The notes under the pieces: generated by a model | The model's database searches: none | Told to the model about the DNA's origin: nothing | The model's input: the letters and a program-made list of their open reading frames with translations, nothing else | Origin: Deltaproteobacteria bacterium | GTDB lineage: Bacteria; Myxococcota_A; Polyangia; JAAYKL01 | Direction: 5' to 3' | DNA: 64,000 nt | NCBI GenBank assembly: GCA_016937015.1 | Contig: JAFGWT010000543.1 | Coordinates: 30,440 to 94,439, forward strand | Translations under genes and position numbers: made by a program | In this document: positions 50,019-64,000 of the stretch, piece after piece | Numbering within the stretch: the stretch's first letter is position 1 | Layout: each line of letters begins with the position of its first letter

Positions 50019-50764
50019 TGAATTTTACGCTCAAAGTGTGGCGCCAGAAGCCCGGTGAAAAAGGGAAAATCGTTACATATGACGCAAAAGAGATAAGTTC
50101 GGATGCGTCTTTTTTGGAGATGCTCGATATCGTGAATGAGCGCCTTGTCATTGAGGGGGAGGAAGCCATTGCATTTGATCATGACTGTCGCGAAGGAATC
50201 TGCGGTATGTGCGGCTGTGTGGTGAACGGATATGCCCATGGCCACCAGGAAGGCACCACGCTTTGTCAGCTACATATGCGCGCATTTGAGGACGGCAGTG
50301 TGATATATGTGGAGCCTTGGCGGTCGAGGGCATTTCCGGTACTCAAGGATTTGGTTGTGGATCGCAGTGCGTTTGACGCCATTATCACAGCAGGTGGTTA
50401 CATTTCAATTCGAACCGGATCCGCGCCGGATGGCAATGCTATCGCCGTGTCGAAAGAAACAGCCGATGCAGCCATGGATGTGGCGGAGTGCATTGGGTGC
50501 GGCGCATGCGTGGCGGCCTGTCCGAATGCATCGGCGATGTTGTTCACATCGGCCAAAATATCTCAGCTGGCACTATTGCCGCAGGGACAGCCGGAACGCA
50601 TGACTCGGGCGCAACGTATGGTTCGAGCGATGGAAGTAGCGGGGTTTGGCGCATGCACCAATCACGGCGAATGCGAAGCTGCATGCCCAAAAGAAATCAA
50701 ACTCGACAATATTGCCCGGCTGAATAGGGAATTTATTGGCGCGTCGGTCAAAAAGCAAGCTTGA
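50018..50764 (+). CDS. frdB: fumarate reductase/succinate dehydrogenase iron-sulfur subunit
   Basis: 2Fe-2[11 protein letters not shown], 4Fe-4[13 protein letters not shown], 3Fe-4S C...CEAACP motifs. Confidence 0.95.
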
Positions 50765-50774
50765 GGCGGTTACA

Positions 50775-52316
50775 ATGAGTAGAGCCGAAATGACTCCGGG
50801 GAATCTCATTCATCAATTTTACGGTTATCTGTTTATTCACAAGCGTATTTACATACTGCTGCTGGCCGTTGCGTTGGCTGGATGCGGTAAAACGTCAGCA
50901 GAGCAGGCGCCCGTTCCAACAGCCACTCAAAAAAGCGCTGAGCAAAATCCGCGCGCAAGTGTGGAGAAGGCGGGGGCATCGCATCCTGTGACTGTCGAGA
51001 AACCGCCATTTAACAAGGTGCTGGTGGTACTCATTGATGCGCTTCGTGCGGATAAACTTGGATGCTATGGGTTTAACGAGCCCACGTCACCGGCCATCGA
51101 CCAACTCGCCAGGGAATCCATCTTATTTGAAAATGTGCATTCTGCTTCTCCATGGACGGCGCCATCATTCGGCACCCTTTTTACCGGAGTATCTCCCACC
51201 GTTCACGGTGCCGGTAAAATGCTGGGTAAGAATTCCAAATCCGGCAAGTCCGTGCACGGAGTAACCGTTGGTGGTATCCGAAAAGATTTGCCAACGCTTG
51301 CGGAATTGATGCCTGAAAAAATGAAAACAGCAGCGGTGGTGAACAATTCATTTGTATGTAAAGAGCTTGGATATGCGCGTGGGTTTGATGATTTTGATTT
51401 TCAGATTGCACGTTTAACCAGTTATCGAACTGCGGATCAGGTTACTGATGCAGCCATCAAGTGGTTGGCGCAAAACAGGAACAATTCTTTTTTTTATTTC
51501 CTTCATTATTTCGATCCGCACATTCAGTATGCCCCGCCTAAAAAGTATTTACCAATATTTGCGCCGAATAAACCGCCTCGAATCGCATATCCTTTCATTG
51601 ACCACGCATCTGCGCGGGATGGAAGCCTCAATCCCAGCAAGGCGGAGAAAGCTTTTATTCGCGGTCTGTACCATGGCGAAGTGCGATTTGTAGATGATGA
51701 GTTCAATCGACTCGTAGCGTTCATGACCAGGGAAGGATTAATGGATGATACGTGGATCATCATATTGTCGGACCATGGGGAGGAATTGTTCGAGCACGGC
51801 AGTTTTGATCATGGGCACCGATACGAAGAGGAAGTCACACGCGTGCCATGGATTATCCGTCCTCCGGGTGGTAAGTGGCATGCTGGGTTAAGAGTGTCGG
51901 CTAATGTATCCCATGTTGATATATTTGCCACGCTGCTCGACCTGGCAAATGTTTCTTTACCGGCTCATAGCGAAGGCGAAAGTGTCCTTCCCATGCTCGA
52001 CCAAAAGGAAAATGGCAGTCGGACTTCATACATGGAATTTAACCTGTTTAATGGTCAACAGGCCGCGTTGTTCGATGGCCGATATAAACTTATTTATGAT
52101 ATTCGCCGGGAAAGCGCATTTGTATATGATCTGCTAAACGATCCGGCGGAACAAAAGAAATTGAATGATGCGAATGATCAGTTTGCAAAATTGCTTGAAC
52201 AACTCAAAAGGAAGCAGGCAAAACTCAAAACGATTTCTTCAGGAAAAGAAGAAAACAGTGCCGTTTTATCAGATGAGTCTCGTGATGCGTTAAAATCACT
52301 CGGGTATATTAAATAG
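50775..52316 (+). CDS. sulfatase-family (alkaline-phosphatase superfamily) lipoprotein with Thr at the nucleophile position
   Basis: lipobox LAGCGK; VLIDALRAD...GCYG metal-site motif; FGly motif C/S-x-P-x-R replaced by T-A-P-S-F (ASPWTAPSFGTLFTG). Confidence 0.75.
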   Translation: MSRAEMTPGNLIHQFYGYLFIHKRIYILLLAVALAGCGKTSAEQAPVPTATQKSAEQNPRASVEKAGASHPVTVEKPPFNKVLVVLIDALRADKLGCYGFNEPTSPAIDQLARESILFENVHSASPWTAPSFGTLFTGVSPTVHGAGKMLGKNSKSGKSVHGVTVGGIRKDLPTLAELMPEKMKTAAVVNNSFVCKELGYARGFDDFDFQIARLTSYRTADQVTDAAIKWLAQNRNNSFFYFLHYFDPHIQYAPPKKYLPIFAPNKPPRIAYPFIDHASARDGSLNPSKAEKAFIRGLYHGEVRFVDDEFNRLVAFMTREGLMDDTWIIILSDHGEELFEHGSFDHGHRYEEEVTRVPWIIRPPGGKWHAGLRVSANVSHVDIFATLLDLANVSLPAHSEGESVLPMLDQKENGSRTSYMEFNLFNGQQAALFDGRYKLIYDIRRESAFVYDLLNDPAEQKKLNDANDQFAKLLEQLKRKQAKLKTISSGKEENSAVLSDESRDALKSLGYIK

Positions 52317-52370
52317 CCAATGCAAAAAATTGAGCCGAAATTATTTTTTTATGCTACCATATCTGAGGAA

Positions 52371-52386
52371 GGTGAAAATTTTCACC
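52371..52386. promoter_or_regulatory. 16-bp perfect palindrome GGTGAAAATTTTCACC (CRP-family-like GTGA-N6-TCAC core)
   Basis: read from sequence; ~260 bp upstream of Cys-rich lipoprotein gene A. Confidence 0.3.
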
Positions 52387-52648
52387 ATTTATTAAACTTA
52401 ATGTTAAAACTTGACCTGGAATCGCAAAGTGAGAAACCTACGGAACCTATCGGAATACAAAAGTTTTTTGGTTAAGAATGGCATTGGAATTTCTTTGAAC
52501 GCGTTTCTTTTATATATTCACTTTTCGCGTCAAAGAGCGTAAAATGTGGCGCAGCAAAAAACAATATCTTTAGGGATATTCACTTAAGGAATCCGGATCT
52601 GATGCAAGGAAAATTTCAGGTCCATAGCAAATTGTGAGGGAATTTATC

Positions 52649-53569
52649 ATGAAAAAACAAAACCTATTATTAATCTTAGCGATGGCGCTGCTTACCGGTT
52701 TTGCATTTATTGGATGCGGAACCGATGATGAGGGCCCGGGCCTGAACAAGTCTGCCACAGGCGACTCTGACAGTGACACTGACAGCGACAGCGACTCTGA
52801 CAGTGATTCAGACAGCGACAGCGACTCAGATAGCGACAGCGACTCAGACAGCGACAGCGATACTGACAGCGATAGCGATAGCGATGGCGGTGGTACCGAA
52901 TGTGACGGCAACGACAAAGATTGCTACAGCGAATGCTGGGGTTGTGCATTGTCTTCAGCTGCACTTTGTAAACCAACGCTTGAAGATTGCCTGATGGACA
53001 CAAAATGTGCTGCGTATTACGATTGCAAAGACAAAACCTGCTGTGGCGGTAACGACAACTGCCTCACTGGCGACGAGTGGGAAGACTGCATGAAAGGTTG
53101 TGCTGAAACCGCAGAAGCAACCGATGCAACTCTCGAAATGTATAAAGACATCGATTATTGTGTTGCCTGTGAAGCATGTGAAATCTCATGCGCACAGGGC
53201 GAGTCCGCTGACTTCGCCATGTGTGGTAATCCTGAAGATATGAACAACCCCGACAATCCCTGCTACGAAGCCGATGCTGAACCCGGTCAGACTGCCTGTT
53301 TCTCATGGGCCGGTTGGGGTGGACCCTGTACGACCGCCGTTACAAACTGCAAAAACGACGACAAATGTGAGACTCTGGAGACATGTGTAAACGAAACCTG
53401 GGCGTATGACGATTGGTCCGCCCGTCAGGACGTTTGTTTCGCAGATGCTGGATCAGCTGCCGAAACACTGTATTGGGCTTACATGCAATGCATCTACTGT
53501 GACGCATGTGATGTCGCCTGTCTTAAAGATGCTGGCTCCAAAAACTGCGACGAATACAGCGGTAAATAG
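52649..53569 (+). CDS. Cys-rich secreted lipoprotein, paralogue A ((Asp-Ser)n linker + ~250-aa novel Cys-rich domain)
   Basis: TGAGGG RBS; lipobox FIGC; shares with paralogue B the motifs CDGxDxDCYxxCWGCALSS, CVACxxCxISC, ACFSWAGWGGPC, DDWSARQD, YMQCIYCxAC. Confidence 0.6.
   Translation: MKKQNLLLILAMALLTGFAFIGCGTDDEGPGLNKSATGDSDSDTDSDSDSDSDSDSDSDSDSDSDSDSDSDTDSDSDSDGGGTECDGNDKDCYSECWGCALSSAALCKPTLEDCLMDTKCAAYYDCKDKTCCGGNDNCLTGDEWEDCMKGCAETAEATDATLEMYKDIDYCVACEACEISCAQGESADFAMCGNPEDMNNPDNPCYEADAEPGQTACFSWAGWGGPCTTAVTNCKNDDKCETLETCVNETWAYDDWSARQDVCFADAGSAAETLYWAYMQCIYCDACDVACLKDAGSKNCDEYSGK
52763..52885 (+). repeat. (Asp-Ser)n coding repeat (GACAGY/GAYTCN)
   Basis: visible hexanucleotide repeats within paralogue A. 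Confidence 0.9.
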
Positions 53570-53791
53570 CTGAGTCCTCGGATAACCATTTCCCCCATTT
53601 CATTTCTTTTATTCAATCTGTAGGTGATATTTTTTAAGTGACATTCTTTTCCCAGGATGCCGCTGAAAATAACTATTTTTTTTTGAGCCGAATTGAATTT
53701 GGTTCCCACCATATTACTATAGCAACACGAATGATGCCGCAACTGGTTACGGTATCACGTGCTTTTATGTCTTAAACGATGGAGGTCTCTT

Positions 53792-54724
53792 ATGAAAAGG
53801 TTAACGTTTTTATCAACCCGTGTAGTGCGTTTTTTCTTTGTATTGTTTTTATTGGCAGGCTGCAATGTGAACAACGGTTCATCTGAAACAGGCGCCGATT
53901 CCGATTCTGATGCCGACACAGATTCTGATGCCGATACAGATTCTGACACCGATTCAGACACGGATGCTGATTCCGAATCGGATTCCGGCGGAGAGGACTC
54001 CGAAACAACGGCTGAATGTGATGGCGCCGACATGGATTGTTATGATGATTGCTGGGGCTGTGCCTTATCGTCTTCGGCTTGCAAACCGCTGGTCGAACAA
54101 TGCTTGTCGGATACAGTCTGCGCAGCATATTACAACTGTAAAACAACAGACTGTTGTGACGAAAACAATAACTGCCTCGAAGGCGATGCATGGGAGGCAT
54201 GCATGGCGGATTGCTCCGCTGAAGCTGAACTGACAGAGGCCGCATTTAACATGTTCACGGCCATTGACAAGTGTGTGGCCTGCGATGAATGCAGCATATC
54301 CTGCGGAGAAAAGCGAAAAGATGAGTTCTCCATGTGCGTGGATCCTGTGGTGGATATAACCATCGATACGCCTTGTTATGATGAAGACATTGAAGGCGAG
54401 GAAGTTGCCTGCTTTTCGTGGGCTGGCTGGGGCGGACCGTGTAGCTGGGCCACTAAACAGTGTAAAGATAACGCGGATTGCGCCGCTCTAGAAACGGCAA
54501 TTAACGAGACTTGGGAGTTTGATGACTGGAGTGCGCGCCAGGACATCATTTGGGGTGAGACGGCAGATGACATTGAAGCGCTCTATTGGGAATATATGCA
54601 ATGCATTTACTGTGGCGCCTGCTACGAAACCAAGTGCTATTCTCACGCGCAATCGAAGAATTGCGAGGAATACTGGGAAACGCATGGTGGCGGTGAAGAA
54701 GATACTGAAACTGCCTCAGAGTAA
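53792..54724 (+). CDS. Cys-rich secreted lipoprotein, paralogue B
   Basis: GGAGG RBS 6 nt upstream; lipobox LAGC; (Asp-Ser/Asp-Thr/Asp-Ala)n linker 53881-53995; same conserved Cys-rich domain as paralogue A. Confidence 0.6.
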   Translation: MKRLTFLSTRVVRFFFVLFLLAGCNVNNGSSETGADSDSDADTDSDADTDSDTDSDTDADSESDSGGEDSETTAECDGADMDCYDDCWGCALSSSACKPLVEQCLSDTVCAAYYNCKTTDCCDENNNCLEGDAWEACMADCSAEAELTEAAFNMFTAIDKCVACDECSISCGEKRKDEFSMCVDPVVDITIDTPCYDEDIEGEEVACFSWAGWGGPCSWATKQCKDNADCAALETAINETWEFDDWSARQDIIWGETADDIEALYWEYMQCIYCGACYETKCYSHAQSKNCEEYWETHGGGEEDTETASE

Positions 54725-54935
54725 GACTTTTTCCTTTTTTTGTTTCATCTGAATTCTAAATCCGCTAATAGCTACTCACATTTGTCGACGTGGTGGCAAG
54801 CCATGATTGGCGCGACACGAAGATGCAGAGATGTTGCGTCTGCCCCGCTTACACCATGACTTGTTTTGTGGTAATTATATATTGGACTTACTGCTGCTTG
54901 CGGCTTACCACGAATTTTGTTGATAAAGGAGAACC

Positions 54936-55202
54936 ATGTCGAAGAATAACGATGCCACTTCGGAAAGTCGACGAAAAGGCACAGTTGTCATAAACGAAGA
55001 ACGATGCAAAGGGTGCACCTATTGTGTTCGGTTCTGTCCCACCGGCGCCCTGGAGATGACTGATCGCCTTAATCACAAGGGATACAACCTGCCAACACTG
55101 GCCTATCCAGATAAGTGCAATGGATGTGACATGTGCGGCATGTATTGTCCTGACTTTGCCATTTTTGGTCGCAGAATTGGACAGAATGAGGAGGACGAGT
55201 AG
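54936..55202 (+). CDS. oorD: 2-oxoacid:ferredoxin oxidoreductase delta (2x[4Fe-4S] ferredoxin) subunit
   Basis: CKGCTYCVRFCP and CNGCDMCGMYCP clusters; first gene of D-A-B-C operon. Confidence 0.8.
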   Translation: MSKNNDATSESRRKGTVVINEERCKGCTYCVRFCPTGALEMTDRLNHKGYNLPTLAYPDKCNGCDMCGMYCPDFAIFGRRIGQNEEDE

Positions 55203-58243: not shown

Positions 58244-59593
<1,350 letters not shown>

Positions 59594-59812
59594 AATTACT
59601 CCTCGTTTTTTTGAGTTCAAACACCTTGTCAATTATCGGTATAGTTTAGTCATAATCCAGCTTGTGCAAAGTGAATAATCGGTTTTTAAAAATATACATT
59701 TTAAAAATACTGAAATTGCAATTTTAATATAATTTTTTGCTTGCGGTCATGATTCCAGAAGTGAGCGGAAAATTCGGAGGTACCCATTAAATGGACCACG
59801 TATCGGCCGTTT

Positions 59813-62232: not shown

Positions 62233-64000
62233 TTATTCGAAGATTTCGCGAACGCAACGTCCACCAATGGCTGAAGAGGTCGTGGCAGGGGCTTCCTTAT
62301 CCCGCGCGGCGTTTCTGAATGCGGATGCATACATGCTGTTGTAGCTGCCGCCGCGAACAACAAATTCGTCACCAACCGGGGGGCCTTGTGGGTTGATGCA
62401 GCTTTCTCCTGCACATCCTCCCAGAACCTCACCATATAAATCCTGTGTCCATTCAGAAACGTTGCCCATCATATCGTATAGTCCAAATGCGTTGGGTTGA
62501 AGACTTCGCACTTCGAAAACACGCGATGTGCCACAGCCAGGATTGTCCTCGTTCATGATGACACGGGAGCAGTCAGGTGCAGGCGTGTTTCCCCAGGGAT
62601 ACGCATAATATGTGTCCGCAACTCCATCGTGACCACACCTGGCCGCGTTTTCCCACTGGGCCTCGGTCGGAAGATCCCCCTCCAGATAGCTGCAGAATTC
62701 CAGGAGGCCTTCGTGGGTGATGCAGTTTATTGGCGCTGTGTTGTTTTCCTTGCCGTTGAATGTGCAACCGGTGGTGGTTGCCACATTGGCTGCATTGCAT
62801 CCGCCGTTCCGGACGCATACCGCATACATGCCCGCCGTCACTTCGCTGTCCATAATGTAATAATCAGAAAGTGTGACCGGAACACGCTGCTCATCATTAT
62901 CGCAATTTGTATCGAGGGACCAGTCACATCCCAGCGTGATCTCGCCGCCGCTGATTCGAACCCACGCCATACCATCCATCCCCGCTGGCACACACTTGTT
63001 ATCGACACTGCATGTCTCACCCGAGCCACATTCACCGCAGTCGACGTCGCCAACGGAACCGCACTCGATGTTATTGCATACATCCACACATACGCCGGCG
63101 TTATTACAGCCGAACATGTTGCCGAGGGAGGAACAGTCTCCACAGCTCACGCCCTCTACTGTACCGCATTGACGATCGCCGCATGCGTCCACACATGCCC
63201 CATTGCTGTCACATCCGAAAGTTGCGCCGTATTCGCTGCAATCGCCGCAGCTGATGCCATCGACAATGCCACACTCGCGATTTGAGCATACGTCAAAACA
63301 GGTGTGTGTTTCTGAACAGGCATAGGTAGCGCCATAGTCCGAACAATCACCGCAATTTACTCCGAGCAGCAAACCGCATTGGGCATTGGCACAGGCATCG
63401 ACACATTTGTAGTCGCTGCAGGTGTAGGTGAGACCTTGAGCGCAAGTGCCGCAATTGACGCCATTGGCAATACCGCATTCATAGGATGAATCGCAGGCAT
63501 CCAGACATTGGCCTGTCTCATTGCAGAATTCTCCATCACTGCACGTGCCGCAAATAAATCCGTCAACAGTTCCGCAAACCTGATTTAAACATGGAAACGC
63601 CACCTCGGCAGGTGTGCACCCAACAATATCAAAATCTGTTGCATCGTACCTGGTCTCAAGAATTCCGGTTTTACCGTCCTTGCTGATTTCTATCTCAAGT
63701 GTGCGAACGCCACCCACCCGTGGACTGCAGATACCCATTAGATAATATGATTTGGAGATGTCATGAATCAGAGCGGTGATTTTGGCAAAAGATGTTTTCA
63801 GCGCATCTGTGTTGGCGGCCCATTCAAATCCGTTTTTGCCAAACTGTTCCAATTCCTCCTGGTTGACATCGGTTCCAAGACCGACGGTGTACACGTAAAC
63901 TTCTGAAGATTGAATCAAATGATCCGCGGTTGTCTTTGACGCTGCCATTGCTTCATCAGTTCCATCGGTAAACAGAACCATGGATTCTGCTGATAAAATA
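62233..64000 (-). CDS. partial (N-terminus beyond window) multidomain protein: vWA-like + six ~35-aa Cys-rich repeats + C-terminal FGE/SUMF1-like domain lacking catalytic Cys pair
   Basis: LFTDGTD vWA motif; repeats of C-V-D-(A/V)-C-x-x-x-x-C-G-x-x-x-G-(V/I)-x-C-G-x-C; C-terminal FGE-like motifs (YAYPWGN, GLYDMMGNVSEWTQD, RGGSYNS) with SUMF1 GGSYMCHRSYC replaced by GGSYNSMYASAF. Confidence 0.7.
   Translation of the reverse strand, partial: ILSAESMVLFTDGTDEAMAASKTTADHLIQSSEVYVYTVGLGTDVNQEELEQFGKNGFEWAANTDALKTSFAKITALIHDISKSYYLMGICSPRVGGVRTLEIEISKDGKTGILETRYDATDFDIVGCTPAEVAFPCLNQVCGTVDGFICGTCSDGEFCNETGQCLDACDSSYECGIANGVNCGTCAQGLTYTCSDYKCVDACANAQCGLLLGVNCGDCSDYGATYACSETHTCFDVCSNRECGIVDGISCGDCSEYGATFGCDSNGACVDACGDRQCGTVEGVSCGDCSSLGNMFGCNNAGVCVDVCNNIECGSVGDVDCGECGSGETCSVDNKCVPAGMDGMAWVRISGGEITLGCDWSLDTNCDNDEQRVPVTLSDYYIMDSEVTAGMYAVCVRNGGCNAANVATTTGCTFNGKENNTAPINCITHEGLLEFCSYLEGDLPTEAQWENAARCGHDGVADTYYAYPWGNTPAPDCSRVIMNEDNPGCGTSRVFEVRSLQPNAFGLYDMMGNVSEWTQDLYGEVLGGCAGESCINPQGPPVGDEFVVRGGSYNSMYASAFRNAARDKEAPATTSSAIGGRCVREIFE

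Follow-up and report, generated by a model that had tools for sequence, protein, structure and literature searches.

Surface glycan-binding proteins (SGBPs) of the SusE/SusF type have a beta-sandwich fold and are encoded inside polysaccharide utilization loci (PULs), and in modular cellulases the slot among the linkers that join the anchor to the catalytic domain normally holds a substrate-binding module. In the class Polyangia (Myxococcota), the novel order JAFGXQ01, with the genera JAFGXQ01 and JAFGQN01, has been described as a group of anaerobic polysaccharide degraders enriched in endoglucanases of families GH12, GH5, GH45, GH8 and GH9, xylanases and pectin lyases (bioRxiv 10.1101/2021.07.06.451402). 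A 64,000-nucleotide stretch of contig JAFGWT010000543.1 (the window) carries two tandem open reading frames (ORFs), here called genes A and B, that exactly span positions 52649-54724. An earlier reading of the sequence alone had proposed that they encode paralogous lipoproteins with an acidic stalk and a novel Cys-rich domain, and both ORFs, lipoboxes and stalks are indeed present. The interpretation favored here, to which a probability of about 40% is given as a whole, is that A and B are surface-tethered, disulfide-stapled binding lipoproteins, probably for a carbohydrate or other substrate. The structural and evolutionary conclusions on the family are considered firm and are held with high confidence.

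The domains of A and B are 54% identical over 234 residues (BLASTP, E = 1e-83), so the paralogy was correctly recognized while the earlier estimate of about 45% identity was too low, and the six motif blocks that had been picked out are found in both proteins and in the same order. Each domain is about 225 residues long with 30 (A) or 28 (B) Cys, corresponding to 13.5% and 11.9% of residues, and is strongly acidic (46–55 Asp+Glu vs 11–13 Lys+Arg). Both leaders have the charged n-region, h-region and lipobox of bacterial lipoproteins: in A, an MKKQ n-region is followed by the relaxed lipobox F-I-G-C23, and in B, an MKR n-region by the canonical L-A-G-C24. The A-type leader is also found in the orthologues L016-L019, P0001 and P0003, and a canonical or near-canonical lipobox together with a K/R n-region is common to family members with a complete N-terminus. 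The stalks consist of Asp-Ser, Asp-Thr and Asp-Ala dipeptides, the coding DNA being a set of imperfect tandem repeats (6/18/36 nt), and stalk length varies among the A orthologues L016-L019. Three ORFs in this region, at 52570-52917 (-), 53755-54033 (-) and 52773-52994 (+), are spurious, being other frames of the repetitive stalk DNA that encode poly-Ser-Leu, His/Arg-rich and similar sequence. The closest orthologue of A, L016, is 89% identical to it, and the ratio of nonsynonymous to synonymous substitution rates (dN/dS) for this pair is 0.058, which indicates that A and B are real genes under strong purifying constraint. They are the only copies of the family within the window.

The second BLAST high-scoring segment pair between A and B is off-diagonal, and the N-terminal and C-terminal halves of the domain are homologous to each other (hhalign probability 95.5%, E = 1.6e-8). 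It thus arose by internal duplication and consists of two homologous modules of about 100 residues, M1 and M2, with a consensus that is roughly C-D-G..D-C-Y..C-W-G-C-A....C......A-C.....C..L..C....C...L-T-G..W..C...C...........L-Y.....C-I-Y-C-D-A-C..S-C......C. Distant relatives have either one module or two similar modules (P0008, P0023-P0026, P0030-P0032). Apart from Cys, the blocks ACFSWAGWGGPC and LYWAYMQCIYC are conserved across the family, the former being identical in most of 27 aligned domains, and M2 has many conserved aromatic residues. An AlphaFold2 model calculated from 21 sequences shows 13 helices and no strands, with a predicted local distance difference test (pLDDT) score of 92.7 and a predicted template-modelling (pTM) score of 0.81; this confident model covers M1 and M2 jointly.

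The earlier statement that the domain belongs to no known family has held up in profile, sequence and fold searches. A Pfam scan left the domain unmatched in both proteins, the output being no more than noise (stalk matches to TrAA12 and PARP, and a subthreshold Fer4 match in B), and in NCBIfam the sole matches were to staphylococcal SD-repeat regions, again on the stalk; no confident match to a characterised family was found by profile search. A phmmer search against all PDB chain sequences gave no match at E <= 10, and a comparison of the AlphaFold2 model with PDB folds returned weak structural matches, none of them significant. No prior description of the domain, or of helical Cys-rich carbohydrate-binding modules (CBMs), turned up in the literature. 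The model suggests an all-alpha domain that is probably a fold without a solved structural counterpart. The novelty lies in the domain family; accessory or binding modules of this general kind, extracytoplasmic, rich in disulfides and borne by stalked lipoproteins, are familiar.

Relatives are scarce. Eight were found by a word-indexed search of 5.8 billion protein clusters and 27 (E <= 0.001) when 1.84 billion cluster representatives were searched exhaustively with a profile, while word-indexed profile searches with single-module alignments returned fragments only. A pattern scan of one genome per species (185,579 species) detected 12 loci, confined to four metagenome-assembled genomes (MAGs): Polyangia bacterium F1F2.bin.2, USDV_metabat.110, and the two Zodletone-spring MAGs ZodW_Metabat.4 (JAFGXQ01) and Zod_Metabat.76 (JAFGQN01). 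A scan of 241 million metagenome records found 5 loci, all on short contigs. The window SdhA is 88–91% identical to the SdhA of three of these MAGs, and so the window probably comes from the same lineage. The family is very rare, undescribed and restricted to anaerobic Polyangia (Myxococcota) of one uncultured lineage. A 66-aa ORF, P0033, present at L021 (6001-6201, F1F2.bin.2) and L022, matches only the last two-thirds of M2 and is probably a gene remnant.

Many lipoproteins of this lineage share a plan of lipobox, acidic stalk and modules, and it is among these that a link to plant-fibre degradation is seen. In the GH45 endoglucanase lipoprotein L013_9333 (PF02015, E = 1.9e-35), M2 is found alone between acidic linkers, in the order lipobox, stalk, M2, stalk, small Cys domain, stalk, GH45. 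It also occurs alone in L014_9527 and in L011_9620; the downstream region of the latter resembles its two tandem GH12 neighbors by eye, with an empty Pfam scan of its own. As a contiguous module within carbohydrate-active enzymes (CAZymes), which is what a new CBM would be, M2 is thus present in L013_9333 and, given the GH12 likeness seen by eye, in L011_9620. The L013_9333 gene is one of two adjacent GH45 genes (L013, 7539-11995, +, in ZodW_Metabat.4), the catalytic domains of which are 70% identical (BLASTP), and the second, L013_7539, carries a CBM6/35 at the position equivalent to M2. Since M2 stands in the slot of CBM6 and has conserved aromatics, it is interpreted as a module for binding, which would make A and B tethered binders in free-standing form. 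No Pfam CBM match was obtained for A, B or the M2-bearing enzymes, though CBM6/35 was readily detected in their paralogues. Elsewhere, family members lie beside a stalked pectinesterase and a stalked pectate lyase, each with CBM6 (L015), a stalked GH11 xylanase (L009) and two stalked GH12 endoglucanases (L011), and a GH6 enzyme without acidic stalk is encoded near the member at L007.

Other Cys-rich modules are found on the stalked lipoproteins of the lineage. The GH45 pair of L013 is followed by a stalked lipoprotein whose Cys-rich domain is STIG1-like (PF04885, E = 7e-8). Two more small modules without a Pfam match have the patterns C..G...C.G..L..C..G.W....DC......C and C..EC..HC.SWGG....G.C...L.CC, the second also lying ahead of GH11 and GH45 domains; they were noted in P0006, P0007, P0009, P0011, P0012, P0017, L009_15143 and L013_9333.

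An alternative use for such interchangeable modules would be protein-protein assembly, in the manner of cohesin and dockerin: the M1-M2 lipoproteins would form a scaffold at the surface, perhaps an A:B heterodimer, that docks the M2 of enzymes, or the modules would serve in adhesion between cells or of cells to a matrix. The division between enzymes carrying M2 only and stand-alone proteins carrying M1 and M2 would suit this, as would the conservation of the A-B tandem in five further genomes or contigs and the retention of the ACFSWAGWGGPC block in every architecture seen. A fused tandem pair, in which one ORF of ZodW_Metabat.4 (L006 2-1768, +) encodes two complete M1-M2 domains with a linker, gives a hint of the Rosetta-stone type. 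However, the M2-bearing enzymes have their own lipobox and so need no anchor protein, M2 looks self-contained with its even number of Cys, no complementary partner class was identified, and the A and B copies at the oor locus of ZodW_Metabat.4 cluster together in a tree (see below), a poor fit to a strict heterodimer. Assembly is regarded as unlikely, and substrate binding is preferred.

The many Cys residues are best explained as disulfides. Among 27 non-redundant two-module domains that were aligned, the Cys count is 26, 28, 30 or 32 in 25, and the two with odd counts are an N-terminally truncated fragment (27 Cys) and P0016 (29 in the envelope and one more Cys shortly before it). No Cys column varies alone, each change being matched in one other column. 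Thus, C85 and C99 (A numbering throughout) are jointly missing in P0016 and P0019, C200 and C203 were gained jointly in three sequences, and C246 and C263 are jointly missing in the whole B clade, including module 2 of B itself, and, independently, in P0019. The counts in A are also even in each module (18 in M1 and 12 in M2), which fits the occurrence of M2 on its own in some proteins, the confident model being for M1 and M2 together. Parity and pairwise change point to disulfides rather than to Fe-S or metal sites, in agreement with the dense disulfide scaffold that was one of the options first suggested, and apparently about 15 (A) or 14 (B) such bonds would form per domain. This pairing rests on parity and covariation among related sequences, with two or three events per pair.

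The same features bear on the idea of a thiolate-rich lipoprotein, metallothionein- or Csp-like, that binds or stores metal and would capture Cu, Zn, Cd or Mo in sulfidic water. A Cys content of 12–13.5%, with many CxxC and CxxCxxCxxxC spacings on helices, in an extracytoplasmic and strongly acidic domain is what such a protein might have, and Csp proteins are Cys-lined helical bundles. The paired gain and loss of Cys speaks for disulfides instead, and neither a Pfam DUF326 match nor structural similarity to a Csp copper-storage bundle was found, so that metal capture is considered improbable. A c-type cytochrome was discounted, since there is no CXXCH motif; A has 0 His, and B has 2 His, neither after CXXC.

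An extracytoplasmic Fe-S or redox protein working with OorDABC or Sdh/Frd had also been suggested, and there are three observations that could be taken in its favor: each protein has the CX2CX2CX3C motif twice, B gives a weak match to Fer4 (E = 0.076), and the position between sdhCAB and oorDABC is conserved. The Fer4 match, at 13.3 bits, stays below the cut-off of 21.1, and A is unmatched, whereas OorD of the same window scores 48–53 bits. In neither protein is the fourth Cys followed by Pro, as it is in the 4Fe-4S motif CX2CX2CX3CP of the beta-alpha-beta ferredoxin fold, and the Cys of these motifs fall in or around long helices of the all-alpha model. Exported proteins that are loaded with a cofactor need the twin-arginine translocation (Tat) route, and the leaders of A and B are of the Sec lipoprotein type without an RR motif. 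Together with the Cys parity, these results go against ligation of Fe-S clusters or metals.

The genomic setting gives a similar answer. A and B do lie upstream of oorDABC, as first described, with the oorD ATG at 54936, 211 nt after the B stop codon, and the four downstream genes encode proteins with Fer4, POR_N/PFOR_II, TPP_enzyme_C and POR domains, and so represent an OorDABC-type four-subunit 2-oxoacid:ferredoxin oxidoreductase (OOR). This enzyme and its ferredoxin are cytoplasmic. A sigma-70-like promoter-like site lies about 60 nt 5' of the oorD ATG. Its TTAC and TAAT do not vary when the B-oorD spacers of five genomes are compared, where most of the remaining spacer diverges; the ribosome-binding site (RBS) and a T-rich block that directly follows the stop codon of B are conserved too. 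The conserved site argues for oorDABC being transcribed on its own. Gene A likewise has a conserved promoter-like site and a structured leader (see below), which also tells against a functional tie to oor. At least seven family loci do not adjoin this operon. Copies at L003, L006, L007, L009, L010, L011, L012, L013, L014 and L015 have other neighbors, which at L003, L006, L007, L009, L010 and L012 include no redox genes, and several adjoin plant-cell-wall CAZymes. Given the 211-nt spacer, the promoter-like site and the copies elsewhere, membership of A and B in the oor operon was rejected. The proposal of a redox partner for OorDABC is not supported by these observations and is considered very improbable; that A and B lie between sdhCAB-sulfatase and oorDABC is best read as conserved synteny and not as functional coupling to OOR. 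A second, distantly related POR-type 2-oxoacid:ferredoxin oxidoreductase (25–30% identity to OorA/OorB) is encoded at L013 (3211-6200, -). It precedes the M2-bearing GH45 gene by about 3 kb, a proximity that is regarded as coincidence.

The gene order sdhA-sdhB-sulfatase-A-B-oorDABC recurs in ZodW_Metabat.4 (L001/L005), F1F2.bin.2 (L004) and Zod_Metabat.76 (L008), and is partly present on an ENA contig (L002); a short JGI contig (L020) carries the A-B tandem. All syntenic copies of A and B are intact, and the pair is found at the same locus in four other genomes. The sulfatase 5' of A (50736-52316, +; PF00884 and SGSH_C), which is syntenic with A and B in four related genomes, is likewise a lipoprotein (LAVALAG-C), though its linker is not acidic. 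In a neighbor-joining tree, A-type and B-type orthologues form separate groups for the window, F1F2.bin.2 and the ENA contig (B type only), and the second copy of Zod_Metabat.76 also falls in the B clade. The two copies at the oor locus of ZodW_Metabat.4 cluster with each other instead of joining the A and B groups, a pattern suggestive of conversion or re-duplication. Between genomes, SdhA and OorB are 86–95% identical and the sulfatase 68–71%, and the corresponding values for A and B are only 45–60%. Such low identity beside conserved neighbors points to fast evolution outside the Cys and a few blocks, as is seen in exposed proteins.

This divergence raises the prospect of a fast-evolving surface coat, decoy or shield without a specific ligand, in which case the enzyme fusions would be incidental domain shuffling. 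The family is multi-copy and lineage-restricted, and the promoter-like site of A and the stabilising-looking hairpins of its 5' leader (see below) would fit an abundant protein. The dN/dS of 0.06 and the conserved non-Cys blocks ACFSWAGWGGPC and LYWAYMQCIYC point instead to a specific conserved site rather than to bulk, and a mere coat is seen as unlikely, on a par with the assembly module.

According to the favored interpretation, A and B would be exported by Sec and lipid-anchored by the N-terminal Cys, and a flexible poly(Asp-Ser/Thr) stalk would display the all-alpha M1-M2 domain, held by about 15 (A) or 14 (B) disulfides and not by metal or Fe-S centres. The same modules would act as accessory modules of stalk-tethered plant-cell-wall hydrolases in the lineage, and A and B, as stand-alone and non-catalytic proteins that are presumably exposed at the surface, may play a role akin to that of a CBM or a surface glycan-binding lipoprotein. 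Tentatively, a polysaccharide or plant-cell-wall substrate would be the most likely ligand. It is possible, but rather doubtful, that M1/M2 founds a new CBM family, all-alpha, with 6–9 disulfides per approximately 100 residues and a fold without a solved counterpart, that is used both on tethered cellulases and on free-standing surface lipoproteins.

Several points weigh against this interpretation. Fusion to a glycoside hydrolase is seen in only two of the roughly 45 members of the family, and within the window the sulfatase is the only CAZyme near A and B. The acidic domain argues against binding of the anionic sulfated glycans that the sulfatase would suggest, and a functional link between A/B and this adjacent enzyme is on that ground considered less likely. 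To our knowledge, there is no described CBM family with an all-alpha fold of this kind, described CBMs being overwhelmingly beta-rich. A surface location cannot be told from a periplasmic one by sequence, carbohydrate binding is suggested by sequence and context, and the Cys pairing is deduced from parity and covariation of kin sequences rather than from observed geometry. The habitat of the lineage is anoxic and sulfide-rich, where exposed disulfides would be at risk of reduction.

Coordinates of the features of the A-B locus are given in Table 1. Gene A has the RBS GAGGGA (52636-52641, 8 nt before the ATG) and gene B has GGAGG directly 5' of its ATG. Both hexamers of the promoter-like site of gene A are conserved in an upstream alignment of six genomes, as is a leader of about 100 nt, which is predicted to form two hairpins. 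The first occupies 52563-52580 (AATATCTT/GGATATT) and the second 52595-52623 (GGATCTGA...TCAGGTCC), and in the second, three pairs keep pairing through compensatory changes on both sides among the six leaders. An Rfam search of 52300-55000 gave no family match at E <= 1; the leader could be mRNA-stabilising or regulatory. Upstream of B, only the RBS is comparably conserved. The 10-mer TTGAGCCGAA is shared by the upstream regions of A (52330-52339) and B (53683-53692) on the + strand, and has no third exact copy in the window. Since no related locus contains it and its flanks are unrelated, it was treated as probably due to chance.

Table 1. Positions of genes, protein regions and putative control elements at the A-B locus (window coordinates).
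Feature	Position	Strand	Basis
Gene A promoter-like site, TTCACT-17 nt-TAAAAT	52517..52545	+	Consensus scan; putative function
Gene A structured 5' leader, two 8-bp helices	52563..52623	+	RNAalifold, six orthologous leaders
Gene A, lipoprotein, 306 aa	52649..53569	+	ATG start to stop, ORF and translation
A signal peptide, lipobox MKKQNLLLILAMALLTGFAFIG-C23, without twin arginine	52649..52717	+	Translation
A acidic stalk, residues 24-83, (Asp-Ser/Thr)n	52718..52897	+	Translation and repeat analysis
A module 1 (M1), residues 84-192, 18 Cys	52898..53224	+	Module alignment
A module 2 (M2), residues 204-303, 12 Cys, carries ACFSWAGWGGPC block	53258..53557	+	Alignment
Gene B, lipoprotein, 310 aa	53792..54724	+	ATG start to stop, ORF and translation
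B signal peptide, lipobox FLLAG-C24	53792..53863	+	Translation
B acidic stalk, residues 25-74	53864..54013	+	Translation and repeat analysis
B module 1, residues 75-182, 18 Cys	54014..54337	+	Domain alignment
B module 2, residues 194-294, 10 Cys, then acidic C-terminal tail to 54721	54371..54673	+	
oorD promoter-like site, TTACAC-17 nt-TAATTA, TGg before -10 hexamer	54849..54877	+	Spacer alignment, five genomes

Two other genes of the window were noted. The one at 58244-59632 (-) encodes a lipoprotein-like protein of 462 aa. It contains a C2 domain (PF00168, E = 1e-13), a Ca2+/lipid-binding fold that is uncommon in bacteria, and two long stretches of poly-Asp, in one of which more than 40 Asp are consecutive. 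The other, at 62233-63981 (-), lies 10 kb from the syntenic lipoprotein sulfatase. In its 582-aa product, about seven Cys-rich repeats (CG.v.Gv.CG.C...C.D.C) precede an FGE-sulfatase (SUMF1-like) domain (PF03781, E = 3e-36).

The domain family of the M1-M2 proteins, and probably its fold as well, has no description in any database, and a confident model is now available for testing. If polysaccharide binding is true, the CBM repertoire would gain a helical, disulfide-stapled scaffold and a small, very stable tag of possible biotechnological use. Uncultured anaerobic myxobacteria appear to have built a lineage-specific surface apparatus from a lipid anchor, an acidic stalk and interchangeable modules and enzymes. 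The tempting but wrong step of taking Cys-rich genes beside oor as a sign of an Fe-S redox partner is removed, and a puzzle is raised as to how about 15 disulfides per domain would be made and kept in a sulfide-rich, anoxic habitat.

Known proteins resemble A and B to differing degrees. With 2x[4Fe-4S] ferredoxins (Fer4) and Csp bundles they share the CX2CX2CX3C motif, present twice, and Cys-rich helices, but differ in their subthreshold match, the absence of Pro and of a Tat signal, the all-alpha fold and the parity and covariation of Cys. Twin-CX9C (CHCH) proteins such as NDUFA8 and the cytochrome bc1 hinge subunit 6 are unlike them in being small proteins of the mitochondrial intermembrane space with 2–4 disulfides, and have no sequence relation. 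The extracellular, lipid-anchored GDNF receptor alpha and GAS1 are alike in having tandem all-alpha modules of about 100 residues with several disulfides each, and recur among the weak structural matches (6q2j_D, 6q2o_C, 4ux8_E, 5mr5_D), with no significant structural or profile match to their domain. The MSCRAMM proteins ClfA/B and SdrC/D likewise have an (Asp-Ser)n spacer between anchor and ligand-binding domain, but the anchor of A and B is an N-terminal lipid and the similarity is of low complexity only. In the NCBIfam matches (E down to 3e-9, 24–35 bits vs cut-offs of 999–2500), only the SD repeat aligns, and with no LPXTG present, membership of the Sdr/Clf families was rejected. Closer in presumed role are the SusE/SusF-type SGBPs of Bacteroidota, which are lipid-anchored, non-catalytic proteins with tandem binding modules and belong to a surface polysaccharide apparatus; A and B differ in coming from another phylum, with no SusC/D pair or CAZymes beside them in the window. 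The CBMs of CAZy, such as the CBM6/35 of the L013 GH45 paralogue, differ from the domain of A and B, which is all-alpha, disulfide-stapled and without a Pfam CBM match, and for which carbohydrate binding is suggested by context. They are alike in being discrete non-catalytic modules that are set between low-complexity linkers in GH45 and GH12-like enzymes, and M2, rich in conserved aromatics, stands in the very slot that CBM6 occupies in a 70%-identical paralogue.

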